Below are positions 18,295-64,000 of a stretch of DNA of 64,000 nucleotides, in pieces. The notes beneath the pieces are model-generated. The model was not told where the DNA came from. It made no database searches and was given only the letters and a program-made list of their open reading frames with translations. The stretch's first letter is position 1. Each line of letters opens with the position of its first letter. Origin of the DNA: Alphaproteobacteria bacterium (lineage in GTDB: Bacteria; Pseudomonadota; Alphaproteobacteria; JBFXJJ01). A program made the position numbers and the translations under genes. The stretch covers positions 108,953-172,952 of the forward strand of contig JBFXJJ010000005.1 of assembly GCA_050175015.1 (NCBI GenBank). The letters are read 5' to 3'.

Positions 18295-21200
18295 CTAAAC
18301 AGCTCTGGCGTGCCAGGTTTGCTCAAGTGTTGAAGCTAATGCATTGTTCAAGGTTTCGTCTTCGCTTATACTAGACATTCCTTGAGGATTAAATGATGAC
18401 ATCGCCTGTACCAACAAATCTACGCTGCTGCGATCAAGTTCAAAGCCGTCAGATATTGTAAACTGATCAATTTGAGCATCATCACTGCCATACCAGTTAT
18501 TAAACACGATAGCATCACTACTGCCCATAATTGATACTTTAAGGTTTTGTCCTTGTTGACTGAACCACAATTCATCATAATCAGCATTTGATATGTTCAT
18601 AATATCCGTGCCATCAGCATCTTGATTAACAATGCTGTCAACACCATCACCTCGTGCAAACTCATAAGTATCATTGCCAGCGCCACCGTAGAGCGTATCA
18701 TTACCGTCACCGCCACGTAAAGTATCAGCACCAGCACCGCCAATTAACACGTCGTTATCAGCTCCGCCTTCAAGAATATCATCTCCGGCATCACCTCTTA
18801 GGTAATCATTAGCCGAACCACCGAGTATGGTATCATTGCCGTTGTTACCATAAGCAACAACTCGAACCGTTGAGTTGGAACCATTAATAACGTCATCTCC
18901 GGCTGAACCAATAACATTCTCAATTGAAGTTGCCGCTAGGTCTAAAGTCATTGCTGTTTGCAGGGTTGCAACATCGGAACCTTCACCACCATTGATCTCA
19001 ATGTCATCGCTGTCAATGTAAAGACTATCATTACCGTCGCCGCCACGTAAAGTATCAGCACCAGCGCCGCCAATTAACACGTCGTTATCAGCTCCGCCTT
19101 CAAGAATATCATCGCCGGCATCACCTCTTAGGTAATCATTAGCCGAACCGCCTAGTATGGTATCATTGCCGTTGTTACCATAAGCAACAATTCGAACCGT
19201 TGAGTTAGAACCATTAATAACGTCATCTCCAGCTGAACCATTAACATTTTCAATTGAAGTTGCCGCCAAGTCTAAAGTCATTGCTGTTTGCAGGGTTGCA
19301 ACATCTGAACCTTCACCCCCACTTATTTCAACATCATCGCTGTCAATGTAAAGACTGTCATTACCGTCGCCGCCACGTAAAGTATCAGCACCAGCACCGC
19401 CAATTAACACATCGTTATCAGCTCCGCCTTCAAGTATATCATCTCCGGCATCACCTCTTAGGTAATCATTAGCCGAACCGCCTAGTATGGTATCATTGCC
19501 GTTGTTACCATAAGCAACAACTCGAACCGTTGAGTTAGAACCATTAATAACGTCATCTCCAGCTGAACCATTAACATTCTCAATTGAAGTTGCCGCCAAG
19601 TCTAAAGTCATTGCTGTTTGCAGGGTTGCAACGTCGGAACCGTCGCCGCCATTGATCTCAACATCATCGCTGTCAATGTAAAGACTGTCATTACCGTCGC
19701 CGCCACGTAAAGTATCAGCACCAGCTCCGCCAATTAATACATCATTATCAGCTCCGCCTTCAAGAATATCATCTCCGGCATCACCTCTTAGGTAATCATT
19801 AGCCGAACCGCCGAGTATGGTATCGTTGCCGTTGTTACCATAAGCAACAACTCGAACCGTTGAGTTGGAACCATTAATAACGTCATCTCCCGTTGAACCG
19901 TTAACGTTCTCAATTGAAGTTGCCGCTAGGTCTAAAGTCATCGCTGTTTGCATAGTTGCAACATCGGAACCTTCACCACCATTGATCTCAACATCATCGC
20001 TGTCAATGTAAAGACTGTCATTACCGTCGCCGCCACGTAAAGTATCAGCACCAGCGCCGCCAATTAACACATCGTTATCAGCTCCGCCTTCAAGTATATC
20101 ATCGCCAGCATCGCCTCTTAGGTAATCATTGCCGCCAAAGCCATAGATAATATCGGAATCAGATGTGCCATAAATAACATCACGTTCTTCTGTGCCTATA
20201 ATCTCATTCGGAGCGGCTGTTAATGTTGGATCTGTTAAGTCTATATCTCCGCCGTTTTTATCCTTTAAAAATTCAACAACAGCATTAGCATCAGAATAAT
20301 GGTTTTGAACACGCATTGTATCGTTACCATCATTTATCGATAAAACTAAATCATTGCCATCACGGGTGAACGTAACATCAGTAACCGAAAGTCCTGTCTT
20401 GAGCATAATAACATCGGCAACATCTCCTGTTTCGATAATAGTATCGTGATCAGAACCTGTGCCAAACAAATAAGTGTCAAATGAACCATGGCCACCCATT
20501 AAAATGTCGTTGCCTTCACCTCCGTCTAGAATATCATTACCAGCGAGGGTTATTAAAGTGTCATCGCCTGTGCCGCCAAATACATTGTCATCACCCGTGC
20601 CACCGGTAATATTATCATCACCACCCATACCAACTAACGTGCAGCCTAAATCATTGCCCGTTAAAGTTTCAGCTTCATCGGTGCCGTATTGTGGGAGGTT
20701 GGTTAAATCGCCAATATTAATAGAAAAATCATCAAAATTAATTTTCTCAATACGGTAGCCACTATCAGTAAGATCATATTGTCCGTATATATCAACGTGT
20801 TCAAAAGTGCTGTTGAGATAGATCTTCATTGTAGTATTTTCTTGAAAGAACGTAACATTTGAAGCAGATAAGCCTCCTGTAATGTAAAGAGTATCATAAC
20901 CTGATTCTTCTCTTATGGTATCAACTCCATAACCTATACCAAAAATATATGTGTCGTTATTAGAACCTCCTCGAAGATTATCATTCCCAGATCCGCCATC
21001 TAGAGTATCATTGCCTTCGTCACCATAAAGGACATCATTTCCAGAACCACCATACAAAATAACATCATCACTATCACCATAGAGACGGTCATCATCATCA
21101 CCGCCATATAAAATATCATGACCTTTTCCAGCATAAAGGCGATCATTTCCACTGCCTCCATCTAGAATGTCATCACCGTCGTCACCATAGAGATGGTCAT

Positions 21201-23505
21201 CGCCACTGCCGCCATATAAAATATCATTGCCTTTATAGCTATTTATAATGAGGGCAACTGTAGAATTAGAGCCATCAATAATATCATTGCCTGTAGAGCC
21301 GCGCGCTTCTTCAATGTTAGAAGCAGTTAAATTAATGAACATAGCTTCTTGTAAAATGACTGCGTCGTAGCCATCTCCACCATCTATTATTGTATCTGCG
21401 GCATCAATGTATAAAATATCATCACCAGCTCCACCATAAAGTTCGTCAGCGCCAGAGCCTCCGACCAAAGTATCATCACCTGCACCGCCATAGATTTTGT
21501 CAGCGCCAGTGTCGCCATTTAAGCTGTCATTGCCAGTGCCTCCTTTAAGAGTATCATTACCTTCTCTGCCAGTTATAGTGAGGTCAGCAGCTGAGTTAGA
21601 ACCATCAATAATATCATAACCTGTAGAGCCAAGAGCCTTTTCAATATTGGAGGCCGCTAAATCAAAGGTAATTGCTTCTTGTAAATAAACAGTGTCTATG
21701 CCGTCGCCGCCATCTATTATTGTATCTGCGGCATCAATTTGAATTGTATCATTGCCAGCCCCGCCATAAAGTTCATCAGCGCCAGAGCCTCCGACCAAAG
21801 TATCATCACCAACTCCACCCTTAAGTGTGTCATTGCCGTCATTCCCAGCTAAAGTAAGACCTACCGTTGAGTTGGAACCATCAATAATATCGTCGCCTGT
21901 AGAGCCATAAACTTTCTCAATATTGGATGAAGTTAAATCAAAAGTTCTTGCTTCTTGCAAATATGCTGTATCATCTCCATCACCACCATCTATTATGGTA
22001 TCGGCAGCATCAATATATAATTTATCATTTCCAGCCCCGCCATAAAGTTCATCAGCGCCAGATTCGCCATAAAGAGTGTCTCTTCCAGAACCACCATATA
22101 TTTTATCGTTGCCATTTCCTCCACGAAGACGTTCCCCTGTGGAGTTGGCATACATTATATCTGCATCATTGTTGAAGGTGATTTTTTCAACTAAATTTCC
22201 TCCAAAGTGGTTTTTAACCGTTATCTGGTCTTGGCTGTCAATTTTATTGATAACCAAATCATTATCAGAGCAAGTTTCTACATAATCTTCAATATTACCT
22301 GTTATCTTTATCGTATCAGTTCCGCTTTCATCATAGATACGGTCTTGACCATCGCCAGCAACAAATTGATAGATATTGTTTTCTGTACCGCCAAGCAGAA
22401 TATCATCACCAATTCCGCCATTTAAGGTCTTAGCGCTGCTGGTGCCATAAATTATGTCAGAATTGTTATTAAAGGATATTTTTTCTATGGCACTACCATC
22501 AAAGTTATTGGTAACAGTTATTTTATCTCCTGTTGTGTTTTCAATAACTAAATCATTGCCAGAGCGGTAGGCGTTATAATCTGCAATATCTTCATTAACA
22601 ACTATGCTGTCATTATCACCACTGTCATCAAATATGGTATCTTCCCCATCACCTGAGTTAAAAACATAAGTATCGTTTCCTGCCCCACCATTAAGAACAT
22701 CGTTGCCCGCAAAACCTATGATTTTATCATCACTTGTTGTGCCAATAAGAGTTTCTGCACCATTGTTTCCTATCAACAATTTGCTGCCATTATCTCTTGT
22801 TGCAGAAACCGAGACACTTAAACTTGCTTCATCGTAATTTACAGAAAAATTGTTAGCATCTCCGATTTCGAAAATAATATTATTAAGTTTTTTTGCTGTT
22901 AACTCATTGTATAAATTATCTATTGCTTGGAATCTTAAAACACTAAGAGGACCGTTATCCTCTATAAATCCGTTAGGGTTAGTTCCATGAAAACCGTTAT
23001 TAGAAAAAGACTCTAAATAATAATCTCTGCCATCTTTTTTGGGAATTGAGCTATAAATATTAGTATTGAAATTAAATTTGCCAAGGAGAAATGAAGTAAA
23101 AGTGTTGCAACAAGGTCCTTCGGTGTCATAATCAATCCCCTCACCATTTAGTCTTAAGCCATCCATTAATTTGGCATAAAATAGAGCTTTTTTAAAGCAT
23201 TCTATTGCAACATCAGAAGATTCTAGATGGACATATCTTGCATTAAAATATTCTATTTCTGCTGTATTGGTGCCACTACCCCAAACAAAGTTTGAATCAT
23301 AGCTGGTTTGATATATATCTCCAGAAAATGTTTCAAATTTAAATTTCATACCTTCTGTGAGATTACCTTTAGTTACTTCAACATTAGTTATTTTTATACT
23401 ACCATCATCTTTTGTTTCGACTAGCCGAAAACCACTATGGCGGCTCATATCTACTAACGGAACATCAAAATCTTCAAAAAATATTTCAAAACTGTAACTA
23501 ATCAT
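18295..23505 (-). CDS. Large RTX calcium-binding T1SS substrate with a unique ~240-aa N-terminal head
   Basis: Many GGxGxDxLx nonapeptides; C-terminal LWFSQQGQNL...LVQAMSSF RTX tail; no Sec signal. Confidence 0.93.
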   Translation of the reverse strand: MISYSFEIFFEDFDVPLVDMSRHSGFRLVETKDDGSIKITNVEVTKGNLTEGMKFKFETFSGDIYQTSYDSNFVWGSGTNTAEIEYFNARYVHLESSDVAIECFKKALFYAKLMDGLRLNGEGIDYDTEGPCCNTFTSFLLGKFNFNTNIYSSIPKKDGRDYYLESFSNNGFHGTNPNGFIEDNGPLSVLRFQAIDNLYNELTAKKLNNIIFEIGDANNFSVNYDEASLSVSVSATRDNGSKLLIGNNGAETLIGTTSDDKIIGFAGNDVLNGGAGNDTYVFNSGDGEDTIFDDSGDNDSIVVNEDIADYNAYRSGNDLVIENTTGDKITVTNNFDGSAIEKISFNNNSDIIYGTSSAKTLNGGIGDDILLGGTENNIYQFVAGDGQDRIYDESGTDTIKITGNIEDYVETCSDNDLVINKIDSQDQITVKNHFGGNLVEKITFNNDADIMYANSTGERLRGGNGNDKIYGGSGRDTLYGESGADELYGGAGNDKLYIDAADTIIDGGDGDDTAYLQEARTFDLTSSNIEKVYGSTGDDIIDGSNSTVGLTLAGNDGNDTLKGGVGDDTLVGGSGADELYGGAGNDTIQIDAADTIIDGGDGIDTVYLQEAITFDLAASNIEKALGSTGYDIIDGSNSAADLTITGREGNDTLKGGTGNDSLNGDTGADKIYGGAGDDTLVGGSGADELYGGAGDDILYIDAADTIIDGGDGYDAVILQEAMFINLTASNIEEARGSTGNDIIDGSNSTVALIINSYKGNDILYGGSGDDHLYGDDGDDILDGGSGNDRLYAGKGHDILYGGDDDDRLYGDSDDVILYGGSGNDVLYGDEGNDTLDGGSGNDNLRGGSNNDTYIFGIGYGVDTIREESGYDTLYITGGLSASNVTFFQENTTMKIYLNSTFEHVDIYGQYDLTDSGYRIEKINFDDFSINIGDLTNLPQYGTDEAETLTGNDLGCTLVGMGGDDNITGGTGDDNVFGGTGDDTLITLAGNDILDGGEGNDILMGGHGSFDTYLFGTGSDHDTIIETGDVADVIMLKTGLSVTDVTFTRDGNDLVLSINDGNDTMRVQNHYSDANAVVEFLKDKNGGDIDLTDPTLTAAPNEIIGTEERDVIYGTSDSDIIYGFGGNDYLRGDAGDDILEGGADNDVLIGGAGADTLRGGDGNDSLYIDSDDVEINGGEGSDVATMQTAMTLDLAATSIENVNGSTGDDVINGSNSTVRVVAYGNNGNDTILGGSANDYLRGDAGDDILEGGADNDVLIGGAGADTLRGGDGNDSLYIDSDDVEINGGDGSDVATLQTAMTLDLAATSIENVNGSAGDDVINGSNSTVRVVAYGNNGNDTILGGSANDYLRGDAGDDILEGGADNDVLIGGAGADTLRGGDGNDSLYIDSDDVEISGGEGSDVATLQTAMTLDLAATSIENVNGSAGDDVINGSNSTVRIVAYGNNGNDTILGGSANDYLRGDAGDDILEGGADNDVLIGGAGADTLRGGDGNDSLYIDSDDIEINGGEGSDVATLQTAMTLDLAATSIENVIGSAGDDVINGSNSTVRVVAYGNNGNDTILGGSANDYLRGDAGDDILEGGADNDVLIGGAGADTLRGGDGNDTLYGGAGNDTYEFARGDGVDSIVNQDADGTDIMNISNADYDELWFSQQGQNLKVSIMGSSDAIVFNNWYGSDDAQIDQFTISDGFELDRSSVDLLVQAMSSFNPQGMSSISEDETLNNALASTLEQTWHARAV
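18700..20130 (-). repeat. 330-bp (110-aa) tandem repeat in RTX gene, four full copies plus a partial
   Basis: TC(A/G)CCTCTTAGGTAATCATT recurs at 18791, 19121, 19451, 19781, 20111. Confidence 0.92.
22221..22748. repeat. Shared RTX linker, copy 1 (in full-length gene)
   Basis: Near-identical DNA to 24304-24831 and 26410-26878; encodes IGTTSDDKIIG...KIDSQDQI. Confidence 0.93.
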
Positions 23506-23550
23506 AACTTATATCCTTGTAAAAAGTATTATTGTTAAATAACCAAATTA

Positions 23551-24108
23551 TTATTTTGTAACTTTATATTTATGCTTTTTAGTAAAAGGTATTAATATAT
23601 ATAAAAGTGGCATAAATAATTGTAGTTCGATAAGAGCCGATGTAATGTTACCTGGTAATTCTGGGTATTCCCAATGGTTAAAAACTTTTCTTACGCTGAA
23701 ACAATATAAACCTATTCTTAACGCTACAAAAAAAACCATAGATAGTTGTTGTAATGAAATTATAAACAAAATCATTTTTTTATTTAGATACTTAAGCATA
23801 AAATATCCTGCAAGACATAATCCAAAACAAACAAGAATTGTAATATTACTTTTAAGAATATAATAAGTTGGAGGGCATACATGATCTGGAGCTTTATCGG
23901 ATATAATAGTATTTGTAATTATATAATAATTAAAACTAAATGTTAGACAAAGCGAGCATCCAAAAAATAATATAAATGAGCCATTTTTTATAATTTTTTT
24001 GATTTTATCTTTTTTAAGTGAGAACTTTTCATTTTTTAAGTTGTTATTTTTAATGTTTATCTCTCCATAATTGGTTTTATATATTTCTTCTCTATTAAAA
24101 TCACTCAT
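23551..24108 (-). CDS. Multi-TM membrane protein, putative immunity partner of head 1
   Basis: About four hydrophobic segments, very AT-rich, ends 45 bp before RTX start. Confidence 0.6.
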   Translation of the reverse strand: MSDFNREEIYKTNYGEINIKNNNLKNEKFSLKKDKIKKIIKNGSFILFFGCSLCLTFSFNYYIITNTIISDKAPDHVCPPTYYILKSNITILVCFGLCLAGYFMLKYLNKKMILFIISLQQLSMVFFVALRIGLYCFSVRKVFNHWEYPELPGNITSALIELQLFMPLLYILIPFTKKHKYKVTK

Positions 24109-24167
24109 AAAAAATACTCTCTAATTTCAAGTGTTAACTTTTTACTGAAGATAACTATACTCTATAT

Positions 24168-24277
24168 TTAATCTAAAATGCACATAATTTTTTGTTATAT
24201 TTTACTAACATAAGGCTACCGTGGGTTGAGTAACAGTATTTACAATTTCAGCTCTAAATAATTACTAATACAGCCGC
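24168..24277 (-). promoter_or_regulatory. Conserved cassette leader (copies at ~26274-26383 and ~28968-29050)
   Basis: TAATTTTTTGTTA...GGTTGAGT...GCTCTAAATAATTACTAA block precedes three cassette membrane genes. Confidence 0.65.
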
Positions 24278-25570
24278 CTAAGAGGCTATTTTAAAATGTG
24301 ATTTTATCTGGTCTTGGCTGTCAATTTTATTGATAACCAAATCATTATCAGAGCTGGTTTCTACATAATCTTCAATATTACCTGTTATCTTTATCGTATC
24401 AGTTCCGCTTTCATCATAGATGCGGTCTTCGCCATCACCAGCAACAAATTGATAGATGTTATTCTCTGTGCCGCCAAGCAGAATATCATCACCAATACCG
24501 CCATTTAAGGTCTTAGCACTGCTGGTTCCATAAATTATGTCTGAATTGTTATTAAAGGATATTTTCTCTATGGCATTACCATCAAAGTTATCAGTAACAG
24601 TTATTTTATCTCCTGTTGTGTTTTCAATAACTAAATCATCGCCAGAGCGGTAGGCGTTATAATCTGCAATATCTTCATTAACAACTATGCTGTCATTATC
24701 ACCACTGTCATCAAATATGGTATCTTCCCCATCACCTGAGTTAAAAACATAAGTATCATTGCCAGCACCACCATTAAGAACATCATTGCCTGCTAAGCCT
24801 ATAATTTTATCATCACTTGTTGTGCCAATAATAGTGTTATTTAAATTTTCGCCGATAAAATAACTTTTATTACCAACCGTTATTTTTAAGCTAACATCTC
24901 TATTTTCACTATCAGTGTAACTTTCATCCCCCATCCATTCAAAAGTTACATTTTCTAAATCTGTAAGAGCTCCTTCGTAATTATTAAAAAACACAGCACT
25001 CATATCTCTTATTGCTGTTGCAATCAAAACATCTTGCCCCGTGTTGCCATCAATAAAACTGCTAAACCTTCCTGGAAATTGACCGTCGAAAGTGTCAAAA
25101 ACATTTATACCATTAAAATAAGTAGAGGCCATTGTCTGTGTCCAAGTATTACAATTGGGACCTGTGGCATCATAATCAAGCAAGCCAAACGATGTTGATA
25201 GTGAACTTCTTAATTTGGCATCAAAAACAAGTTTATTATATGCTCTTAAAGCATCATTACCTTGAAAAAAGATGAATGTTTGAGCATTATAATTTGTTAT
25301 AAATTCTTGAGTTGTGTCTCTTTCTCTATCATTAACATAAGTTTTAACTCCCCAAATAATTTCATTTCCTTGGTTATCTATATATGTTTGTCCTGAAGAT
25401 TCGACAAAAGCAAAATCAATATTGCCATCGACAACGATTAAATCAATTGCTTTTACAGTCAAACTTCCATCATCATTAGTTATTAATAAATCATAGCCAG
25501 AGTGCATAAGAGTGGTTTGAGGGGCATCAATTGATCTGGTATGAGCACGCAATTCGTAAGTAACAGACAT
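24278..25570 (-). CDS. Orphan RTX cassette 2: alternative head + shared linker, truncated
   Basis: Own AGGAG RBS; ~245-aa head, then the linker, ending SQDQIKSHFKIAS; lacks RTX C-terminal secretion tail. Confidence 0.85.
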   Translation of the reverse strand: MSVTYELRAHTRSIDAPQTTLMHSGYDLLITNDDGSLTVKAIDLIVVDGNIDFAFVESSGQTYIDNQGNEIIWGVKTYVNDRERDTTQEFITNYNAQTFIFFQGNDALRAYNKLVFDAKLRSSLSTSFGLLDYDATGPNCNTWTQTMASTYFNGINVFDTFDGQFPGRFSSFIDGNTGQDVLIATAIRDMSAVFFNNYEGALTDLENVTFEWMGDESYTDSENRDVSLKITVGNKSYFIGENLNNTIIGTTSDDKIIGLAGNDVLNGGAGNDTYVFNSGDGEDTIFDDSGDNDSIVVNEDIADYNAYRSGDDLVIENTTGDKITVTDNFDGNAIEKISFNNNSDIIYGTSSAKTLNGGIGDDILLGGTENNIYQFVAGDGEDRIYDESGTDTIKITGNIEDYVETSSDNDLVINKIDSQDQIKSHFKIAS

Positions 25571-25588
25571 AAAAAACTCCTTCTAAAA

Positions 25589-26209
25589 TTAATTAATAAT
25601 TATTCCGAAAAATAAATAAATGAATGTTGGTAAAAACATTGCAAAAACAAAACAGATATATGTTGCTATTCTCAGATATGTTTTATTATTGACGTTGAGC
25701 TTTTTGCCAAAATTGGTAAAAAAGAAGAGCAAACCGAATAATGAATTTATAATATCAGCAAACCAGCTATATTTGTGGGCAAAACTAAATAATATAAAAC
25801 CAAAATGACAGAAAAAGTTTTTTAATGATATTTGACCTATATATTTAACACATAATTCTTTTTGATAATCCCGCATCCCAAAAGATACTGCAGAAGGATT
25901 ATTTATTTTGACAAGCATTATTATTAACATAATAAAAAATGTTATTAGTGAGATCATAGCAATAATTTTTATAAAGATTTCTTTTGAAAAAGCGTTATAT
26001 GCGAGGTATACAAAGACAATCCAAGTTAGGCTATATAAAAAAGCAATGTTCCAGTTTAATCTCATTCCTGTAGATAAATTATTTATAAGCATAAAAACAC
26101 TAAAACAAAGCAATAAAAACAACCATATTATGGATAAAATTTTAAGTACTTTGGTTATTTTTAGCTGTTTAATGCTATTCAAATTTATGCTTTTGTTAAA
26201 TGTTTCCAT
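25589..26209 (-). CDS. Multi-TM membrane protein, putative immunity partner of head 2
   Basis: Five to six hydrophobic segments; ends 18 bp before cassette 2. Confidence 0.6.
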   Translation of the reverse strand: METFNKSINLNSIKQLKITKVLKILSIIWLFLLLCFSVFMLINNLSTGMRLNWNIAFLYSLTWIVFVYLAYNAFSKEIFIKIIAMISLITFFIMLIIMLVKINNPSAVSFGMRDYQKELCVKYIGQISLKNFFCHFGFILFSFAHKYSWFADIINSLFGLLFFFTNFGKKLNVNNKTYLRIATYICFVFAMFLPTFIYLFFGIIIN

Positions 26210-26383
26210 TATTATATCCTTAAAATAATAAAATTTGTTTTCTGCAAAATATCGTTACACAATATATGCCGTTTTAATCTAAAATGCACATAATTTTTTG
26301 TTACATTTGTCCAACATAAAACCATCTTAGGTTGAGTGATAGCGTTTACAATTTCAGCTCTAAATAATTACTAATACAGCCGT

Positions 26384-27878
26384 CTAAGAGGCTATTTTAA
26401 AATGCGATTTTATCTGGTCTTGACTGTCAATTTTATTGATAACCAAATCATTATCAGAGCTGGTTTCTACATAATCTTCAATATTACCTGTTATCTTTAT
26501 CGTATCAGTTCCGCTTTCGTCATAGATGCGGTCTTCGCCATCACCAGCAATAAACTGATAGATATTGTTTTCTGTACCGCCAAGCAGAATGTCATCGCCA
26601 ATACCGCCATTTAAGGTCTTAGCACTGCTGGTGCCATAAATTATGGCTGAATTGTTGTTAAAGGATATTTTCTCTATGGCATTACCATCAAAGTTATCAG
26701 TAACAGTTATTTTATCTCCTGTTGTGTTTTCAATAACCAAATCATCGCCAGAGCGGTAGGCATTATAATCTGCAATATCTTCATTAACAACTATGCGGTC
26801 ATTATCACCACTGTTATCAAATATGGTATCTTCCCCATCACCTGCATTAAAAACATAAGTATCATTGCCAGAACCACCTAAGAGGATATCGTCAAAACTA
26901 CTACCAGTTATATTATCTTCACCGTCCCCTCCAATAAAAACTATACCATTTTTCTCATAATCACTTATATTTGGAACATCAAAAAAACCATAAACAGGCA
27001 TATCAGATGAAGAAAGTGTATCTCCGTTATTAGTACCATATATAATCGGACGATCTTGAACGTCAAGAAATCTGGTAATCCCAGAATTTCATAAATTGTT
27101 TAATAAAGTATCTCCTCCTAGTTTCATAAGAGTTAATTTTTCAATAGGATTAATAATTTGTGAACTTGTTATAAAATTATTTTCAGCATCAAAATCATCT
27201 TGAGTATATGGCTCTCTTGCTAAAGGAACTTGTGTAAATTCAATTTCAACTTTTCGGCCTATTTTAGATGGATCAATATTATTTTTAATAAAAGCATTGC
27301 CAATGCTTGCCGTAAAATCATCACTTTGTAAGTCAAAATTTTCTTTATAATATGTACCATCTTCTAATTGATAATCATGTAAGGGGGCTACAGCTAAATT
27401 TAAAATGCTTCTATTTCCATTCGCATCAACAGTAAAGCGTATAGCATCTTCTAATTTAAAGGATGTTGATCCCCAAACGTAAAATCTTTCAAGATAATCA
27501 TTAAATCCCATACTGTCATCGTAAAAATCATACTGTTCTATATTAAATATAAACGAAGTAAGTTTTGGATTTAAAAGATTACAAAGATGATCCGCTATCT
27601 GTTCCTTATCAAAATCTCCACTTGGAACGTCATATTTATATGTTCCATCAGAATTTTTTTTAAAAAAACGCTGGATTATTTTAAACTGTGACGCAACAGC
27701 AAATCGGCCTGCTCCATTAGTCATAAAATTAGCACCATCAACTTCTATTGAAACAACATCCGCTTCTGGTCTAAAAGCTTTCTGAGGTTAAATCGCTGGG
27801 AGTTGTTTCTTGTCCATATAAATATAAATTTGTTATTGTTTCTGGGGTAAGTCTATGAGTGTCATTATAAATAGTCAT
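26384..27878 (-). pseudogene. Orphan RTX cassette 3 with frameshift and nonsense codon
   Basis: GGAG RBS + ATG 27878 (MTIYNDTHRLTPETITNLYLYGQETTP); frameshift near 27772; in-frame TGA 27089-27091; frame continues into linker ending SHFKIAS. Confidence 0.85.
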
Positions 27879-31086: not shown

Positions 31087-33279
31087 ATGGTCTCCCAAAT
31101 AATCTCTCCCAATTTTGAAGCATCAAAAAGCGAACAAAAAGCCCCCAATCTTGATACAGGATTGATTGCTCTGGTTATGATTGGCCGCTTTTTTGAACGT
31201 CCTGCTGATCCTTTCCAAATTAAGCATAGTTTAGGCAAAGGTGAGTTACTGCTTTCGGAAATAGATATTCTGCGGGCAGCAAAGCTGCTTGATTTAAAAG
31301 CCAAAGCTATCTCTTCTGATTTTGACCGTATTGCCTCCAAAACGCCGCTGCCTTGTATTGCTCAGAGCAATGATGGGGAGTGGTTTATTATTGGACGGGC
31401 TGCGGAAGATAAAATCTTAATTCATAAGCCTGGGCAAAAAAATCCAGAAATCATCGCTAAAGAAGCTTTTATGAGTTTATGGTCTGGGCGTTTGATTCTT
31501 TTTACCAGCCGCAAAACCACCGTTGGCGGACGCCGCCGTTTTGATGTCTCGTGGTTTATTCCTGCGGTTGTTAAATATCGCCGTTTATTTGCCGAGGTTC
31601 TTCTGGCATCGTTTTTCTTGCAACTCTTTGCTCTAGTTTCACCTTTGTTGTTTCAGGTTATTATTGATAAGGTTCTGGTGCATCACGGCCGCAGCACGCT
31701 TGATGTTATCTTTTTTGCTTTATTATCTATCGCCATTTTTGAAAGTGTTTTAGGCGCACTTCGCACTTATGTGTTTTCGCATACGACTAACCGAATTGAT
31801 GTCGAACTTGGAACACAGTTGTTTCGGCATTTAACAGGACTGCCTTTGGCTTATTTTGGCGCCCGCCGTGTTGGTGATACGGTTGCTCGTGTCAGAGAGC
31901 TTGAAAATATCCGCAGTTTTTTAACTGGTTCGGCTTTGACATTAGTAATCGATCTTGCTTTTACATTCGTCTTTTTTACAGTGATGTTTTATTATGCCCC
32001 TATTCTTTCTTGGATTGTGGTTGGCTCTATTCCTTTTTATGTTGTCTTATCCTTGCTAATTTCACCGCTCCTGCATCAAAGAGTTGAAACCAAATTTAAG
32101 CACGGCGCAGAAAACCAAGCCTTTTTAGTAGAAACCATTACAGGAATAGAAACCGTTAAAGCTATGGCTTTGGAACCACAGTCTCACCGCCGCTGGGAAG
32201 AACAGCTTGCGGCTTATGTTGCTAGCTCTTTTAAGGTTAGCAATCTTGGCAATGTCGGACAGCAGACAATTCGCTTAATTCAAAAAGCGACTTCAGCTTT
32301 AACTCTGTTTTTTGGCGCCAAATTGGTTATGGATAACAGCTTGTCCGTTGGGCAGCTTGTAGCATTTAATATGCTGGCGGGCAATGTTTCTTCCCCAATC
32401 CTGCGTTTAGCTCAGGTGTGGCAGGATTTTCAGCAAGTTAGAATATCGATTGACCGTTTAGGTGATATTTTAAATAATCCTCCTGAGCCTTCGGTTGAAA
32501 CTGGTAGAGCTCCTACAACAGCGCTTAAAGGTCATGTTGTTTTTGAAAATGTTTCTTTTCGTTATGATCCTTCGGGTTCACGCATTTTATCCGATATTAA
32601 ACTTGATATTATGCCTGGTGAAACTATCGGCATTGTTGGTTCCTCAGGTTCGGGCAAAAGTACGCTCACCAAACTAATTCAGAGACTTTATATTCCAGAG
32701 CAAGGACGGATTATGGTTGATGATATTGATATTTCAACCGCAGATCCTGCTTGGCTCAGAAGGCAGATAGGTGTCGTTTTACAGGAAAATATGCTGTTCA
32801 ACCGCTCGGTTAGAGATAATATTGCTATTACCAATCCTTCCGTTCCTATGGAACGGGTCATTGAAGCTTCTAAGCTTGCAGGAGCTCATAGCTTTATTGC
32901 GGAACTTTCTGATGGTTATGACACAATAATAGGCGAAAGAGGTACCTCGCTTTCGGGCGGTCAACGCCAGAGAATTGCAATCGCTAGAGCTTTGCTTACC
33001 AATCCCCGAATTCTAATATTTGATGAAGCAACTTCCGCTCTCGACTATGAATCTGAAAAAGCAATTCAAGATAATATGGAGAAAATCTGTCAAGGCAGGA
33101 CAATGTTTATTATTGCGCATAGATTATCAACGGTGCGAAGCTGTTCTCGCATTATTGTGATTGAACGCGGCGAAATTGTTGAAATCGGAAGTCATAAGTC
33201 ATTATTAAAATCAGGCGGGCGCTATGCTAACCTGTGGCGCTGCCAAACTGATGATGCCGTTAAAGAGGTGTCATTATGA
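31087..33279 (+). CDS. hlyB: Type I secretion ABC transporter, HlyB family
   Basis: C39-like N-domain without the catalytic Cys (LDTGL), GDTVARVRELENIR, GSSGSGKST, LSGGQRQR, IFDEATSALD. Confidence 0.95.
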   Translation: MVSQIISPNFEASKSEQKAPNLDTGLIALVMIGRFFERPADPFQIKHSLGKGELLLSEIDILRAAKLLDLKAKAISSDFDRIASKTPLPCIAQSNDGEWFIIGRAAEDKILIHKPGQKNPEIIAKEAFMSLWSGRLILFTSRKTTVGGRRRFDVSWFIPAVVKYRRLFAEVLLASFFLQLFALVSPLLFQVIIDKVLVHHGRSTLDVIFFALLSIAIFESVLGALRTYVFSHTTNRIDVELGTQLFRHLTGLPLAYFGARRVGDTVARVRELENIRSFLTGSALTLVIDLAFTFVFFTVMFYYAPILSWIVVGSIPFYVVLSLLISPLLHQRVETKFKHGAENQAFLVETITGIETVKAMALEPQSHRRWEEQLAAYVASSFKVSNLGNVGQQTIRLIQKATSALTLFFGAKLVMDNSLSVGQLVAFNMLAGNVSSPILRLAQVWQDFQQVRISIDRLGDILNNPPEPSVETGRAPTTALKGHVVFENVSFRYDPSGSRILSDIKLDIMPGETIGIVGSSGSGKSTLTKLIQRLYIPEQGRIMVDDIDISTADPAWLRRQIGVVLQENMLFNRSVRDNIAITNPSVPMERVIEASKLAGAHSFIAELSDGYDTIIGERGTSLSGGQRQRIAIARALLTNPRILIFDEATSALDYESEKAIQDNMEKICQGRTMFIIAHRLSTVRSCSRIIVIERGEIVEIGSHKSLLKSGGRYANLWRCQTDDAVKEVSL

Positions 33280-34694
33280 TTAAGCCTAAAATGCCTGAAA
33301 AAATTTTGAGCATAGCTTTAAAAGCAAAGACGTTTTTTATTACGGTTTGGCAGTTTTTACAATCTCTTGCCGAAGGACCCGAGCAAAAGACTTTAGAAAA
33401 ACAGTTTTTACCTGCCGTTTTGGAAATTACAGAAACGCCGCCCTCTCCTCTTGGCAGAACTATGATTTATGTAATTATAACCGTCTTTACGACAGCCTTG
33501 TTATGGGCAACTTTTTCTAAAGTTGACATTGTAGCGATTGCTCCAGGAAAGTTAGTTCCAAGCGGTTATAGTAAAATAATTCAGCCGCTAAAAATTGGCA
33601 TTATTGCTAATATTTTTGTGGAAGACGGGCAAAAAGTTGTCAAAGATGAACCTCTGATTGAAATCAGAGCCGAAGAAACTGGGGCTAATAAAATTCGTCT
33701 GGGGCAGGAGCTTAAGTTTGCTAAGCTTGATGTTGCAAGGCTTTCAGCGCTTCTAGAGCCTATTCCCGAAAAGGCATTCAATCCAGATGATGTAGAATCT
33801 GAACTGCTATCCCAGCATAAAACATTGCTAATCGGAGAACTAGAAAAGTATCGTGCCAGCTTATCGGTTATTGAAAAACAAATTGTGCAAAGTGAAGCCG
33901 AAAAAGCGGTATCTGAAGCCGAAATCAGAAAAATTGAACGTATGCTACCCAATCTTAAAGAAAGGGTGGACGCTAAATATAAGCTGAAAGAACAAGGAAT
34001 TGTTGCTCCTATGACATATTTAGAATTAGAACAAGATTTGATTGATTTAGAAGAGCAGCTTAATATTCAGAAAAAAAGTGTCGCCGAAATTAAAGCGCAG
34101 CTTGAAACTCAAAAAATGCAATATACTGAAACCAAAAACTCATTTAAAAATGATGTGCTTTACCGCATTAATGAAGCTCGCAACAATGTCTCGATGCTAA
34201 AAGAAGAATTATCTAATGCTGAGTGGCTAGAAGAAATGACAACTATAAAGGCTCCAGAAGCCGGCATTATTCAAGAGTTGTCAGTTCATACTGTTGGCGG
34301 AGTTGTTACAGAAGCTCAGCCGTTAATGAAACTTGTTCCCAAGGATAGTGTTTTAGAAGTCGAAGCTATGGTGCTAAACAAAGATATCGGCTTTGTTAGG
34401 GAAGAACAGCAGGCAGTAATCAAAATCGATAGTTTTCCTTTCACCAAATATGGCACAATCGATGCAACCGTTATTGATATATCACCTGATGCGATTGAAA
34501 ATGAAGAACTGGGATACGTCTATAAGGCAAAGCTTAGCCTTGCAAAAGACCATCTGATGGTAGAGGGCAAAAAAGTTATGCTCTCCCCGGGTATGACTAT
34601 CGTCGCCGAAATCAAAACAGGACAACGACGCCTTATCGAATTCCTGCTCTCCCCTATGATTAAATATACCGCCGAAAGTATGAGAGAAAGATAA
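33276..34694 (+). CDS. hlyD: Type I secretion membrane fusion protein, HlyD family
   Basis: FLPAVLEI.ETPPSP, coiled coil, FPFTKYG, LSPGM...EIKTGQRRLIEFLLSP...RER. Confidence 0.95.
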   Translation: MIKPKMPEKILSIALKAKTFFITVWQFLQSLAEGPEQKTLEKQFLPAVLEITETPPSPLGRTMIYVIITVFTTALLWATFSKVDIVAIAPGKLVPSGYSKIIQPLKIGIIANIFVEDGQKVVKDEPLIEIRAEETGANKIRLGQELKFAKLDVARLSALLEPIPEKAFNPDDVESELLSQHKTLLIGELEKYRASLSVIEKQIVQSEAEKAVSEAEIRKIERMLPNLKERVDAKYKLKEQGIVAPMTYLELEQDLIDLEEQLNIQKKSVAEIKAQLETQKMQYTETKNSFKNDVLYRINEARNNVSMLKEELSNAEWLEEMTTIKAPEAGIIQELSVHTVGGVVTEAQPLMKLVPKDSVLEVEAMVLNKDIGFVREEQQAVIKIDSFPFTKYGTIDATVIDISPDAIENEELGYVYKAKLSLAKDHLMVEGKKVMLSPGMTIVAEIKTGQRRLIEFLLSPMIKYTAESMRER

Positions 34695-35707: not shown

Positions 35708-35933
35708 AACGAAGTTCGTTCATATGAGAGGTTTTAAGGTTGTATAAAAAGTTTTGCTTTTGCTTTTACAAAAAGCAAAGCTGTTGGCAAGCATTTACCG
35801 TAAGGCAAAAAAATTCGTATAATTAAATAGCTTGTATTCTAAAAACGGCTTTTTATTTAAAATTTTCTGTTTTGTAAACTTTTGTTATATTTTATTACAA
35901 TATATTAACAATAATAATTAGTAAAATAACATT

Positions 35934-36020
35934 TTATTGCAAAATATTATAACCATAATTAGGATAAAACATAGTTATGGTTAAAAATAATATCATTATA
36001 AAATTAAATTTACTAAACAT
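35934..36020 (-). CDS. Inverted start/signal-peptide module of locus 1 (28-aa OFF-state peptide)
   Basis: GAAAGG RBS; MFSKFNFIMILFLTITMF-YPNYGY-NILQ*; YPNYGY is encoded by the inverted repeat. Confidence 0.8.
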   Translation of the reverse strand: MFSKFNFIMILFLTITMFYPNYGYNILQ

Positions 36021-36537
36021 GGTCTTGACCTTTCATAAAAATGGTAACAAGATTTTAATTTATATTTGTTTTAATTCTGCGCTAGTTTCTAGCAATTATC
36101 AAGAATAAAAAATGCGCGAAATATTATTTTTTTAATATTTAAGATTTAATTTATTAAAATTTGTTACAAAACTATAAACTACAAAGAAGTTTTAAATTGA
36201 ATATAAAAGCAGATACTTCCTATTGAGTAATACATTGAAATTATTGTATTTTATTCCAAGCAAAACTGTTGGGTAACTTGAGGGTAACATTATTTACTAT
36301 AATTTAAAAATATAGCAAAGATGTTTTAAGATTAATATATTGATAAATAATATTTTATTACCATATTTATAAATATTTTAGGGTAACATATAGGTAACTT
36401 TTAAATATTATTTTTTAATATAATTATTTTTTGCATAAATTTAACAATCACATAACACATTGATTTATAATATTTTTAATATAAATATTTTTATTAAAAT
36501 GCTTTAATTTTAAGGATATATCCTAATTATGGTTATA
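35948..36537. promoter_or_regulatory. Invertible switch 1 (19-bp IRs, 552-bp internal segment), OFF orientation
   Basis: TATAACCATAATTAGGATA 35948-35966 and TATCCTAATTATGGTTATA 36519-36537; promoter-like TTGATA-N17-CAGAAT on minus strand 36102-36074. Confidence 0.85.
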
Positions 36538-39227
36538 GTCAAACAGCCATCACAACCTGCTCAGAATTACAGGCGATAAACAATAATCCATCTGGAGATT
36601 ACTATCTAACAAATAATATCGATTGTACTAGCATTGAAAATTTCGAACCTATAGCGTCTTTTTCTGGCTACTTTAATGGTATGGGGTTCACCATATCAAA
36701 TCTAAAAATCAGTCGAAGTTCACAAGACAATATTGGACTGTTTGGCTCTACTAACAATGCTGTTATTATTAATGTTGTATTATCTAATATTAATATAAAG
36801 GGGCAAGCTAATGTTGGCGGATTAGCGGGGTATATGAACAAGTCCTATGTTAACGGCGTTAAAATTTCTGGCTTGGTTGAAAGCAGCAGTTCTTGTGTTG
36901 GAGGTTTATCGGGACGCACAGACAACACTGGTATCTATAGCTGTTCTTTTATTGGTCATAGCAAAGGTCTTAGTGTTGATACAGGTGGAATAGTAGGATA
37001 TTTCCTTACAAATTCAAGTCTTTCTAATAGTTATGCTTCAGGTGTAGTTGAAGGCACGGGATTGGTTGGAGGTTTAGTTGGACGTATGGAAATGAATACG
37101 TCTATAACTAACAGTTACGCAGATAGCTCTGTTACAGGAAGTGATCTGCATGTCGGAGGCTTGGTAGGCTGGCAGGCTTCATCTTCTGTAATTAATAGAA
37201 GTTACGCCGCTGGCGCTGTTTCGGGACCAGAAGGATACGTTGGAGGTTTAGTTGGTTGGGATTATGATAACACTCTGACTGTTACATCATCTTATTGGGA
37301 TATGCAAACTTCTGGACAAGCGACAACAGCAGGAAACAAGGGGACAGGATTAACTACCACTCAAATGAAAACACAAAGCTCTTTTGTTGATTGGAATTTT
37401 GTTGATGTTTGGAAAGCACCAGAAACTAACTATGCAAAATTAAGTTGGGAAGAGACCGTTCCAATTTCAACCTGCGAGGGACTCCAAAATATAAGCAACA
37501 ACCTTGGCGGCAGTTATTATTTAGTAAATGACATTGATTGCAGCGATACAGTTAACTGGAATAGTGGCAAAGGCTTCAGACCTATTGGGCTAAGTGATTT
37601 TTGGAACATAAGTTCTTTTCGTGGAACATTTGATGGTAAAGGTTACAAGATAACAAATCTTTATATTAATAGAACGGACGCCAGCTGTGATCTTGGTTAT
37701 GGATTGTTCGGTTACGCTATACAGGCCATCATTCAGAATGTGGGAATTGAGCAAGCTAATATTAAAGGGCGTTGGATAACAGGAGCATTGATTGGCTTGG
37801 CTACCAGTAATGTTTTTGTAACCAATTGCTATTCTTCAGGAGATATTTCTGCACTAAAACAAGGGGGGCTTGCTTGCGGGCATGACGGCTTATCTCGTGC
37901 TGGAGGACTAATTGGCCAATTGTGGAGCAGCAACTCTAGAATTTATAATGTTTATTCTAATGCTAAAGTCAGCGGTACAGGTGAAGAAATTGGAGGTTTA
38001 GTTGGAGTATTTTATGGATATGCCAATTCAACATCTTATATAAAAAATTCGTATTCTACAGGACTTGTTGCCTGCTCTACCAATTACTGCGGCGGTTTTT
38101 TGGGGCATTTATATGAAAACGCTTATATTATCAACAGTTATTGGGATATGCAAACTTCAGGAAAAGCCTCAAGTGCTGCGGGAGTTGGCAAATCTACATC
38201 AGATATGAAAAGTAAAAGCACATTTTCAGGCTGGGACTTTACTAATGTTTGGTATCTTATTTACGGTGATTATCCACGATTAAAAACCCCCTATCCTGTT
38301 TGCACAGGCTGTGCAGTATTAGAAGATGGCGTGTGTGTAGCGGGCGGCAGTTGTTCTGGTGAACACCCGACGTGTAATGTTACGGGCTGGGTTGGACTTT
38401 GCGAATGTTCATCTAGCACTTGCGGTGATGGTCGAGCTTGTTCTGACGGTGTTTGCGTAAACTGTGATTCTGACTCAGCTTGCGGAGCTTGTGGTTGTGG
38501 GACATCTCAAAAACCAACGGGAACAGGCGCTTGTATGAACAACAGTATGTGCTGCCCTGGCGAATGCAATATGGCAACGGGGGCTAACTCTTGCGGTTAT
38601 AGCGACGACTTATGCCCAACAGGTGTATCCTGCAATCGCTCAACCCTTTCCTGTTGTGCAAATGAGCTTCCTTATTGGCGAAGTGAAAATTGCCGATCTT
38701 GTTCATCGACCAGTGGACTTTCTGGAAATTGTCAAACGCCTGGTATGATGTGCAACTCTCGTTACGACTGTATCGTATGTCTAGCTAATAGCCAGTGTAC
38801 TTGTGAAGACGGTGAAGTAGCAGACGGTATGGGTGGCTGTGTTGAACCTTACTGTTACAGTGACAGCGAATGCGGAGTTGATGAATGCGTTAATGCTGGC
38901 TTGTATAATGCTTTTTGCTCTAACTGCAGTTCAGTAAACAAAGTATGGCACAGCACTTCTTGTGAGAGCTGTCCTGCTGGTTCGGTATATTCTAACGGCG
39001 TTTGCGTATGCTCTGACGGCAAGATGTGGAACTCAGCCAACAATCTGTGCTTATCTCGAGGCGTTATCAGCTCAGGCGGCATCTTAGACTTAAAAACATC
39101 TAATACCATAAATGCGTCAGATGAGAGATACGCCAGAATTAAACGTAAAATGAACCGCATAACCAGCAGTGCTTACGCTGGAGCAGCGCAGAAAAAAATT
39201 GAAGAGGAGGAGGAATCCCAAGAGTAA
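36519..39227 (+). CDS. GLUG-repeat, Cys-rich exported protein body (headless until switch 1 inverts)
   Basis: Frame open from 36498 with no ATG until 36681; repeated VGGLVG motifs, SYWDMQTSG, Cys-rich C-terminal third. Confidence 0.85.
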   Translation, partial: YPNYGYSQTAITTCSELQAINNNPSGDYYLTNNIDCTSIENFEPIASFSGYFNGMGFTISNLKISRSSQDNIGLFGSTNNAVIINVVLSNINIKGQANVGGLAGYMNKSYVNGVKISGLVESSSSCVGGLSGRTDNTGIYSCSFIGHSKGLSVDTGGIVGYFLTNSSLSNSYASGVVEGTGLVGGLVGRMEMNTSITNSYADSSVTGSDLHVGGLVGWQASSSVINRSYAAGAVSGPEGYVGGLVGWDYDNTLTVTSSYWDMQTSGQATTAGNKGTGLTTTQMKTQSSFVDWNFVDVWKAPETNYAKLSWEETVPISTCEGLQNISNNLGGSYYLVNDIDCSDTVNWNSGKGFRPIGLSDFWNISSFRGTFDGKGYKITNLYINRTDASCDLGYGLFGYAIQAIIQNVGIEQANIKGRWITGALIGLATSNVFVTNCYSSGDISALKQGGLACGHDGLSRAGGLIGQLWSSNSRIYNVYSNAKVSGTGEEIGGLVGVFYGYANSTSYIKNSYSTGLVACSTNYCGGFLGHLYENAYIINSYWDMQTSGKASSAAGVGKSTSDMKSKSTFSGWDFTNVWYLIYGDYPRLKTPYPVCTGCAVLEDGVCVAGGSCSGEHPTCNVTGWVGLCECSSSTCGDGRACSDGVCVNCDSDSACGACGCGTSQKPTGTGACMNNSMCCPGECNMATGANSCGYSDDLCPTGVSCNRSTLSCCANELPYWRSENCRSCSSTSGLSGNCQTPGMMCNSRYDCIVCLANSQCTCEDGEVADGMGGCVEPYCYSDSECGVDECVNAGLYNAFCSNCSSVNKVWHSTSCESCPAGSVYSNGVCVCSDGKMWNSANNLCLSRGVISSGGILDLKTSNTINASDERYARIKRKMNRITSSAYAGAAQKKIEEEEESQE

Positions 39228-39326: not shown

Positions 39327-39430
39327 AAGGAGGTGATAAATAGAAATTTAAAAAAACTTTGCAAGAACAAACCCTGATAAAAAAACGAGGAAGCTTTGCT
39401 TTAAGGTTAAGCTTCCTCGTTTGTTTTTTT
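39327..39430 (+). repeat. Conserved 3' element: perfect SD, invariant 52-bp core, terminator
   Basis: 39327-39378 identical to reverse complement of 60987-61038 and of the copy ending 63985; followed by CGAGGAAGC...GCTTCCTCG hairpin. Confidence 0.85.
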
Positions 39431-56714: not shown

Positions 56715-57380
56715 ATGAAAATAAAAACTATTGTTTTTTCTTTTTTCCTTTTAGGAATAGCAGGTTGTTCTGCAACCTATACCGCGGTATCAAAAAAAGA
56801 TTTAATTGTTCAAAGCAAAATGAACAAAACCATTTTTTTACAACCAGTTTCTCCAGCAAAGAGAGTTGCTTTTATTGAAGTAAGAAATACGTCTGCTTCC
56901 CCTGAGTTTGATATGTCAAAAGAAGTTAAAGAGGCAATCGCAGCAAGAGGTTACCGTATAACTGACGATCCTGAAGAAGCAAATTTTCTACTTCAAGCCA
57001 ACGTTTTGCATATATCATATGATGGAGAATCATCTGGCAGCGCAATTGGAAGCGCCTTGACTGGGGGCGCTATAGGTGGCGCAACTGGAGCCGCCGTATC
57101 AAACGGATCAACCTCAACCGCAATTGGAGGAGCCCTTGTGGGTGGATTAGCCGCAACGGTTGCTGATGCTATGGTCAAAGACGTTACATTCAATATCATT
57201 ACTGATATCCGCTTATCACAAAGAAATTTTAATGCTGATGATATCAATGAAAATCCAGACAACTGGAAAAGATACACTGCCCGCATTATCAGTACCGCCA
57301 ACCAAGTTAATCTTAAATTAGAAGAAGCCATACCAGAGCTAAAAAAAGGCATTGCTAATTCTATAGCTGGTGTATTTTAA
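56715..57380 (+). CDS. traT: TraT-family outer-membrane lipoprotein
   Basis: IAGC lipobox, TIFLQPV, GYRITDDPEEANFLLQANVL, glycine zipper, STANQVNL. Confidence 0.85.
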   Translation: MKIKTIVFSFFLLGIAGCSATYTAVSKKDLIVQSKMNKTIFLQPVSPAKRVAFIEVRNTSASPEFDMSKEVKEAIAARGYRITDDPEEANFLLQANVLHISYDGESSGSAIGSALTGGAIGGATGAAVSNGSTSTAIGGALVGGLAATVADAMVKDVTFNIITDIRLSQRNFNADDINENPDNWKRYTARIISTANQVNLKLEEAIPELKKGIANSIAGVF

Positions 57381-60926: not shown

Positions 60927-61038
60927 CAAAAAAAGCGAGAGATTTCTTAAAGATTTAGGTCATTTAAGGAATCCCTCGTTTTTTAAATCAGGGTTTGTTC
61001 TTGCAAAGTTTTTTTAAATTTCTATTTATCACCTCCTT
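60927..61038 (-). repeat. 112-bp direct repeat, copy A (SD element + terminator)
   Basis: Identical by eye to 63874-63985. Confidence 0.92.
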
Positions 61039-61186
61039 ATTTTTTCTTTTTTTATAAGCTAGAAGCTTGTTGTCTTCGCAGACGGCGCTCGCTTTTTTTA
61101 AAAGCGAGAGCAAAACCTTGTTTCTTTGATTGTTTAAGCAATAACCTATCTCAAACGTTCGCCGCCCTCGCAAAACTCTTTTATTC

Positions 61187-63184: not shown

Positions 63185-63744
63185 TATCCTATGTTTTTAA
63201 GCATTTTAATAAAAATTTTTTGATTAAAAATATTAAAAATCAATATGTTATGCGTTTGTTAAATTTTGGTAAAAAAGGGTTATATTAAAAAATAATGTTT
63301 AAACGTTACCTATATGCTACCCTAAAAAGATATAAATTTTCATATAAAACACCTTAATATCAATATGTTATATAAAAACAATATTTTTTAAATAACATAT
63401 TTTAAGAAAGAATAGATACCCGTATGTTACCCATCAGTTATTTTTATAAAAATATTTAGTTATTTCAATGTGTTATCTTTGTTGTTTTTTGTTGTTAAAA
63501 TGCAAAAAAGATTGTTAAAAAGATGTTACAAAAAGTTTAAGAATAAAAAGCTACCAAAACTTTTTTATCCAAATTAGCTGCTTAGTTAAAAAATATTATA
63601 CTTGCCAAAGTCGCAAAATCACGGCAAAATAAAGCCAAGTATAATAATATATTTTAATGAAAGGATAAGGTTATGAAAAATAAATATAAGCTTATTAGTA
63701 TAATGTTTTTGATTATAACGCAGCTGTATCCTAGTAATGGTTAT
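63167..63744. promoter_or_regulatory. Invertible switch 2 (18-bp IRs, 542-bp internal segment), OFF orientation
   Basis: ATAACCATTACTAGGATA 63167-63184 and TATCCTAGTAATGGTTAT 63727-63744; promoter-like TTGCCA-N17-CAAAAT 63602-63630. Confidence 0.85.
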
Positions 63745-63873: not shown

Positions 63874-63985
63874 CAAAAAAAGCGAGAGATTTCTTAAAGA
63901 TTTAGGTCATTTAAGGAATCCCTCGTTTTTTAAATCAGGGTTTGTTCTTGCAAAGTTTTTTTAAATTTCTATTTATCACCTCCTT
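63874..63985 (-). repeat. 112-bp direct repeat, copy B
   Basis: Identical by eye to 60927-61038. Confidence 0.92.
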
Positions 63986-64000
63986 TTTATTTAAATCGCC

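Follow-up and report, generated by a model that had tools for sequence, protein, structure and literature searches.

Organization of the locus

The window analyzed here is a stretch of 64,000 nucleotides from contig JBFXJJ010000005.1 (contig C5 of the assembly, positions 108,953 to 172,952 of the forward strand; GCA_050175015.1), which belongs to a 2.5-Mb, 99% complete genome of an alphaproteobacterium. The sequencing run that contains most of the stretch is labelled as landfill metagenome. Positions 35934 to 39227, referred to as locus 1, hold a large reading frame without a start codon at its head, preceded by a segment enclosed between inverted repeats. A preliminary description of this DNA had read the arrangement as an invertible switch, set to OFF, that carries the promoter, the start codon and the signal peptide of a surface protein.

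The repeats, at 35948-35966 and 36519-36537, are indeed exact reverse complements of 19 bp, with 552 bp between them, and they form the longest of the four perfect inverted pairs of at least 15 bp listed for the window. Each belongs to a site in which two 7-bp arms enclose a 7-bp spacer. The flank-side site occupies 35948-35968 on the minus strand (outer arm 35948-35954, spacer 35955-35961, inner arm 35962-35968), and the body-side site 36517-36537 on the plus strand (inner arm 36517-36523, spacer 36524-36530, outer arm 36531-36537). As the region is very AT-rich and contains 283 imperfect inverted pairs, the repeats could be chance matches, or the segment could have been mis-oriented during assembly. 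This is highly improbable: a perfect inverted repeat of 19 bp was reached in none of 1000 dinucleotide shuffles of 35708-36700 (maximum 17 bp), 19 bp lies far below the 127-base word of the assembler, and the same plan is found at 13 loci of the genome.

On the plus strand, the reading frame of the body is open from 36498 (909 amino acids), and its first ATG, GTG or TTG is the ATG at 36681, which opens an open reading frame (ORF) of 848 amino acids. From the repeat onward, the headless body comprises 902 codons (36519-39227). They encode two domains of the GLUG/M26_N type and a region rich in cysteine, and the C-terminal tail is basic. The Pfam families GLUG (PF07581; 39.1 bits, cut-off 20.5) and M26_N (40 bits, cut-off 27.7) both pass, and the encoded protein contains 53 cysteines. 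A single-sequence AlphaFold model of the body (pLDDT 36) was unusable, and an Atlas structure search with the C-terminal part gave no usable match. The expectation that gene callers would overlook the switch is borne out by the public protein of this gene, which has 883 amino acids, an internal start and no leader.

The missing 5′ part lies inside the segment, on the opposite strand. A leader ORF of 28 amino acids (36020-35934, minus strand) is preceded by the ribosome-binding site (RBS) GAAAGG (36034-36029) and by a sigma70-like promoter with a 17-bp spacer (36102-36074), which in the assembled orientation faces away from the body. Codons 1-18 of the leader (36020-35967) would supply a signal peptide with its n- and h-regions. 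In this orientation, the frame runs on through the flank-side site, residues 19-24 being encoded by the repeat, and then meets a stop. As a match, the promoter is weak (9 of 12 positions) and taken alone no better than chance, as the region holds 16 such sites against 10.7 ± 3.6 in shuffles. What lends it credence is that the motif, with this spacing, recurs at one fixed position in 12 of 13 cassettes, the pattern having been derived from an alignment of these same cassettes. A motif scan for a terminator near the cassette gave no match.

When the segment is inverted in silico with the crossover in the repeat, the leader and the body are joined in frame into a product of 920 amino acids, as had been anticipated, with the ATG 18 codons ahead of a YP motif. 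The body-side repeat (36519-36537) codes for YPxxGY, a part of the signal-peptide c-region. The leaders have a proline at -6 and small residues at -3 and -1, which fits signal peptidase I, and cleavage after GY[S/A] is predicted for the flipped product. Of the idea of a surface protein, a predicted export signal is present, but no outer-membrane anchor family was found.

A family of start cassettes

The genome contains 13 complete cassettes of this kind, two of them in the window, with 525-566 bp between the sites, and all 13 are assembled in the OFF orientation. A 14th cassette, which is broken in the assembly, appears to be mostly ON. They are scattered over nine contigs, one per gene. The second cassette of the window (63167-63744, plus strand) has 18-bp repeats at 63167-63184 and 63727-63744 and a leader ATG at 63673. 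It is also OFF, and its headless body (61187-63184, minus strand) yields 683 amino acids after the flip. A non-coding repeat of about 110 bp is found behind both bodies and beside the second cassette (window about 39330-39400, 60930-61040 and 63880-63990), and the contig of the window ends in it.

All sites share the arm-spacer-arm organization, with imperfect dyad symmetry. The spacer is the same at both sites of a locus in all 13 cassettes, though the cassette interiors match at only approximately 66-77%, and it differs from locus to locus in all 14. The flank-side arm begins with A instead of G in eight of the 13 cassettes, but not at locus 1. When the crossover is set in the spacer, inversion brings the ATG to 18 codons ahead of the YP motif in 13 of 13 cassettes, which supports the switch that had been proposed for locus 1, and 12 of the flipped ORFs are long (540-920 amino acids), six of these running off their contig. 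By charge and hydropathy heuristics, all 13 leaders are basic and then hydrophobic, with one to three K/R near the beginning and neither D nor E among the first 20 residues. A longer motif from RBS to ATG is present in 11 of the 13 with at most two mismatches, and the dead-end peptides of the OFF state measure 23-40 amino acids in the 11 cassettes measured.

The family also includes members that depart from the common plan. The decayed cassette C21:16241-16777 has kept its sites and repeat pairs, lacks a promoter match, has a weak leader and has no body behind it (54 amino acids when flipped). A cassette-free member, C1:47400-57552, is an ORF of 3372 amino acids with 363 cysteines, whose contiguous leader ends in the same P-N-x-x-Y-A pattern as the cassette leaders and which has the shared tail. 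This basic tail, RYxRIKxKMxRI (39102-39227 at locus 1), ends eight family ORFs and no other ORF of the genome; it could be a sorting or anchoring signal.

With regard to the start of translation, the body might be made in the present orientation as a cytoplasmic protein from an internal start, which would make the leader irrelevant. The ATG at 36681 offers such a start, and many paralogs have a methionine at codon 19. However, the first methionine varies from codon 19 to codon 291 among the bodies, the 53 cysteines suggest an oxidizing compartment, and most of the GLUG homologs listed start with a hydrophobic leader, as judged by eye. Translation from an internal start is accordingly regarded as very unlikely.

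The ON alleles that the preliminary description had proposed to look for in related genomes did not turn up. Among the best 120 homologs listed for the first GLUG region there is no ON-form protein, and only one protein of the present genome starts with the YP motif. The body protein has weak GLUG matches in two of 40 relatives, all of the same class. The repeat together with the start of the body gave no match in metagenome contigs. In 400 other genomes of the class, this pattern gave a single one-mismatch match, which was rejected as chance, having no partner repeat, no pairs and a frame of 18 amino acids. The pair motif described below was found in none of five genomes encoding relatives of the candidate integrase, and no relative with cassettes was found.

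Contig-level evidence for both orientations at the 14th cassette

Contig C11 begins exactly at the repeat of the 14th cassette and continues into a headless body of 1594 amino acids (C11:1-4786). This body has 176 cysteines and no Pfam match and is not a GLUG protein, although it has the shared C-terminal tail. Contig C21 starts with 108 bases of the non-leader end of a cassette and the same repeat (C21:1-127), after which comes an outer flank of the usual kind. A junction of this composition is of the ON type; the 108 bases and the 19 of the repeat make up the 127-base overlap of the assembler. In sequencing run X1, a contig of 607 bp (depth 15.8) terminates on the last base of the repeat, the flank contig (depth 13.8) begins 11 bases inside the cassette, and in two records the repeat is followed by the 11 letters with which the C11 body opens.

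Three of the four junction types fit the contig ends. When four sets of junctions were simulated, only the ON junctions combined with the OFF junction of non-leader end to body reproduced the contig ends, at both word lengths. At the contig level, the ON form of the 14th cassette thus appears to predominate and the OFF form to be a minority, which adds to the case for the switch. This evidence comes from contigs, which drop rare variants; locus 1 is unbroken in the assembly, and runs X2 and X3 have no coverage of the 14th junction. A leader-like loose end (position 109) was considered as the missing junction and rejected, as it shows seven mismatches and belongs to the cassette on C10.

With 13 of 14 cassettes OFF, locus 1 could also be a silent donor or a frozen relic, only the 14th site being expressed and variation arising by exchange of body segments. 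Identical blocks are common to several bodies, and contigs break inside them, as at the ends of C6, C11 and C27 and of C10 and C17, suggesting that bodies have exchanged segments or been duplicated recently; the decayed cassette on C21, without body or promoter match, points in the same direction. Against this, locus 1 and 11 other cassettes have kept an intact promoter motif, ribosome site, leader and set of accessory sites, the spacers match within each pair in all 13, and the differing spacers would make it hard for loci to exchange leaders. The outcome of relaxed selection can moreover be seen in the decayed cassette. A silent or frozen locus 1 is thus unlikely. Locus 1 is very probably one of 14 independent ON/OFF phase-variation switches.

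Accessory sites inside the cassettes

Besides promoter and leader, the cassettes carry a regular series of further sites. From the non-leader end, the order is a site like those of integration host factor (IHF), a direct-repeat pair, a second IHF-like site, a second pair, a third IHF-like site and the promoter. At locus 1, where all lie on the minus strand, these are IHF-like site 1 (36453-36465), pair 1 (36381-36398), IHF-like site 2 (36333-36345), pair 2 (36271-36288) and IHF-like site 3 (36228-36240). The first two IHF-like sites match the IHF consensus WATCAANNNNTTR exactly, and the third matches it with one mismatch. Over all cassettes, this consensus has 18 exact matches on one strand and none on the other, compared to a mean of 0.76 and a maximum of 4 in 200 shuffles, and the genome has three genes of the HU/IHF family.

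The repeat pairs have an 11-bp period, and the 26 pairs in the profile score 21.8-31.3 bits. The offset of the first pair falls in helical steps, at 107-108 in three cassettes, at 117-119 in nine and at 131 in one, which is the decayed one. The pairs resemble the arm sites of integrases, and the putative IHF sites are predicted from the consensus.

A candidate recombinase

A profile search of the genome for serine recombinases gave no match, while Phage_integrase, the family of the tyrosine recombinases, has 17 matches. When the profile of the repeat pairs was run over the whole genome, one site outside the cassettes scored in the cassette range (29.1 bits; next best 15.5). It lies 190 bp upstream of a gene for an integrase of 424 amino acids on contig C1 (C1:263738-265012). 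Within 600 bp upstream, this gene has four exact half-sites and the other 14 integrases have none on the same strand. Upstream of it lie two arm-type pairs, at -190/-179 and -54/-42 (C1:263738-265546), which likely serve autoregulation or are left over from an attachment site. The integrase stands alone between xerD and lptF, with no tRNA gene and no island, and no fragment of a tRNA T-loop was found upstream when one was looked for.

The N-terminus of the C1 integrase matches Arm-DNA-bind_3 (PF13356; 49.7 bits, cut-off 27). Catalysis by tyrosine recombinases depends on the residues R-K-H-R-H-Y, and the corresponding R256, K281, H349, R352, H375 and Y384 are invariant in 12 aligned proteins. 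A locus search with the single protein gave nothing, whereas alignment searches returned 93 loci of mobile relatives; 15 of these were examined (all 13 from genomes and two from metagenomes), and 14 were compared for pairs and tRNA. In 12 of the 14, a tRNA fragment lies upstream of the integrase gene, and in 12 of 14 a pair with an 11-bp period stands just ahead of the start; four of these are GTTACCT pairs, nearly the cassette sequence. The distance from the pair to the 7-base anticodon loop is 130-141 bp in the eight loci where it was measurable. Taken together, these observations suggest that the C1 protein, as a domesticated integrase, probably flips the cassettes in trans.

A number of observations weigh against the enzyme or the switch. 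Besides the C1 integrase, the genome encodes 14 other tyrosine recombinases, and a core site looked for near the C1 gene was not found. The closest relatives (50-63% identical) have GTTAGC or GGTAGC pairs, and relatives with GTTACCT pairs are just 43-45% identical (34% in the arm domain); therefore, motif and protein similarity do not track each other. Sites of the IHF consensus are irregular in the mobile relatives, and the distance from spacer to pair is 130-141 bp there versus 113-137 bp in the cassettes. The distinctness of all spacers is only mildly beyond chance (p approximately 0.04-0.05), and 12 of the 91 spacer pairs are one base apart. As to orientation, the evidence from run contigs concerns the 14th cassette and not locus 1. 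The fourth junction of that cassette, from leader to flank, was not seen in the run X1 contigs, the two run X1 records with body letters were counted together and not listed singly, the assembly may itself derive from run X1, and a minority junction that stands alone might be a chimera formed in the library.

Some of these points fit a different assignment, in which the cassettes are flipped by another enzyme, such as XerC/XerD or a trio of integrases of 354 amino acids linked to tRNA genes, and the pairs bind a regulator that also controls the C1 integrase gene. The 17 Phage_integrase matches, the lack of parallel between motif and protein similarity and the absence of a core site near the C1 gene favor such an enzyme, as does Mycoplasma penetrans, for which one recombinase acting on many differing sites is reported in the passages of PMC3047005 that concern it. 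On the other hand, relatives of the C1 integrase have the same kind of pair at the position of the arm sites of islands, the motif is found upstream on the same strand in none of the 14 other integrases, and the three 354-residue proteins adjoin tRNA genes like those of ordinary islands. Another enzyme is a possibility that we hold as the less probable one, and the C1 integrase is retained as the candidate.

Related pairs of the GCTAC type occur near other integrases and tRNA-His, at C2:67118, C2:87366, C10:10571, C4:199754, C20:3331 and C20:20644. They are ordinary arm sites of islands with sequences of their own. Furthermore, the small contigs C39, C26 and C42 carry tandem integrases, a second tmRNA and extra tRNAs; they may not belong to the organism.

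Neighboring genes and other features

The window contains the genes ntrY-ntrX-trkA-hflX-mazG, and this order, together with the labels of the integrase relatives, indicates that the DNA is alphaproteobacterial. Upstream of locus 1 (18295-27001 and 31087-34694) lie an ORF of 1736 amino acids with RTX repeats and then shorter RTX-repeat ORFs, and the same stretch also holds an ankyrin ORF and a type I secretion pair of ABC and HlyD proteins. A TraT-family protein (56715-57380) is encoded between two large ORFs without Pfam matches (54885-56681 and 58506-60572). Elsewhere in the genome there are two secretins. A genome search for TpsB gave no match, but neither did its controls. Lastly, C16:9705-10651 contains at least 15 copies of a CRISPR-like repeat with a period of 66 bp, with an inverted copy at 14684.

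Comparison with known systems

Phase variation by promoter inversion has been described in several bacteria. IHF helps inversion at fimS, and the recombinases FimB and FimE have no arm-binding domain. The Mpi system of Bacteroides uses a serine recombinase, with many loci under one enzyme acting in trans. In the preliminary description, fimS and Mpi had been named as parallels to locus 1. Short inverted repeats around a promoter facing away from its gene, as in the fimS, Mpi and mpl type, are indeed found here, the promoter being recognized by motif and position. However, in that type the inverted DNA lies entirely between genes and the start of the gene stays in place, whereas here the start codon, the RBS and 18 codons lie inside, and the systems from Mycoplasma pulmonis and Ureaplasma described below are closer. 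According to the passages available, E. coli fimS switches surface genes ON and OFF by promoter inversion (PMC9993118), and the BT capsular polysaccharide (CPS) loci of Bacteroides have invertible promoters (bioRxiv 2023.03.11.532203). The segments of both are intergenic, and the present genome differs further by having no serine recombinase match.

In the relevant passages of PMC3047005, the vsa locus of M. pulmonis and the mba and UU172 elements of Ureaplasma parvum are described as inverting a promoter, a ribosome site and the 5′ end of an ORF onto a silent body. As far as these passages go, the likeness is that one repeat lies inside the coding sequence and the 5′ part that is moved encodes the signal peptide. 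In the cassettes, promoter, RBS and 5′ end are likewise joined in frame, in register in 13 of 13 in silico and giving long ORFs in 12 of 13. The systems differ in that, in the same account, vsa and mba/UU172 have one start block and alternative bodies at one locus, whereas here each gene has its own cassette and OFF means a stop; the host is moreover Gram-negative and environmental, and there are internal arm-type and IHF-like sites.

The mpl genes of M. penetrans, as presented in that source, show many promoter inversions with differing 12-bp repeats under one tyrosine recombinase, MYPE2900 (PMC3047005). The cassettes resemble them in being many independent switches with locus-specific repeats, and a single tyrosine recombinase for all is, to the extent described there, a feature of mpl. 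They differ in that start codon and signal peptide are inverted as well and that variation is mainly confined to the 7-bp spacer. The cassettes work like vsa and mba/UU172 and are organized like mpl, without being a full member of either.

One repeat in coding sequence and the other outside also defines the partial intergenic invertons, a descriptive class into which, as it is outlined in the passages available, the cassettes fall. Most of these are, by the same passages, shufflons swapping domains (Chanin et al., bioRxiv 10.1101/2023.03.11.532203), and the terms 'signal peptide' and 'start codon' are absent from the main text of that article. Arm-binding recombinases are presented in the consulted portion of PMC8138268 as integrases of phages, integrative and conjugative elements and islands, the shufflon invertase Rci having no arm domain. 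The C1 gene resembles the IntSXT/DUF4102 integrases by its arm-binding domain, its catalytic residues and the repeat pairs ahead of the gene, and the 7-base anticodon loop between symmetric arms in its relatives resembles the 7-bp spacer of the cassettes. It differs in lacking both a tRNA and an island, and its role would be that of an invertase serving the host. In open-licence literature, exclusive of supplements, no report was found that combines inversion of a start cassette with an arm-binding integrase; similar cases might be listed among the invertons tabulated by Chanin et al.

Proposed mechanism and significance

The following working model can be proposed. A cassette of 590 bp between two core sites of a tyrosine recombinase holds the promoter, the ribosome site, the ATG and 18 codons. 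In the OFF state, the promoter would fire into the flank, producing a dead-end peptide of 28 amino acids, and the body would be left without promoter, start and export signal at once. In the ON state, a crossover in the spacer would join leader and body into a protein of 920 amino acids exported by the Sec pathway. The integrase (DUF4102, IntSXT-type) is envisaged to act at the core sites, tethered by the repeat pairs, while IHF would bend the DNA in between, and strands would be exchanged across the 7-bp spacer as at the attachment site of an island or phage. Recombination between inverted sites with an asymmetric spacer would result in an inversion. As the accessory sites move together with the cassette, a bias in orientation would have to come from the outer arms or the flanks. 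Having its own spacer would prevent each locus from recombining with the sites of other loci. At locus 1, such flipping may serve to vary the cell surface, possibly as a way to evade phages or predators or to change adhesion.

If the model holds, the cassettes would amount to naturally orthogonal recombination addresses, all read by one enzyme. With a candidate enzyme named and its putative binding sites defined, the mechanism could be reconstituted in E. coli, with no need to grow the organism itself. Should the C1 integrase be the invertase, DNA memory or logic circuits could draw on a single recombinase that has at least 14 spacer codes of natural origin. In broader terms, start-cassette phase variation, known mainly from pathogens among the Mollicutes, would be extended to an uncultured environmental alphaproteobacterium, in a form with one switch per gene that is annotated wrongly by gene callers. 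The odds lean slightly toward the fuller reading, in which an island integrase and its attachment hardware of arm pairs, IHF bends and 7-bp overlap have been domesticated as a genome-wide invertase of 14 separately addressed signal-peptide switches, allowing a free-living alphaproteobacterium to display any subset of its cysteine-rich exported proteins. An invertase of this origin would mark a route from the integrases and attachment sites of mobile elements to switches of the host.

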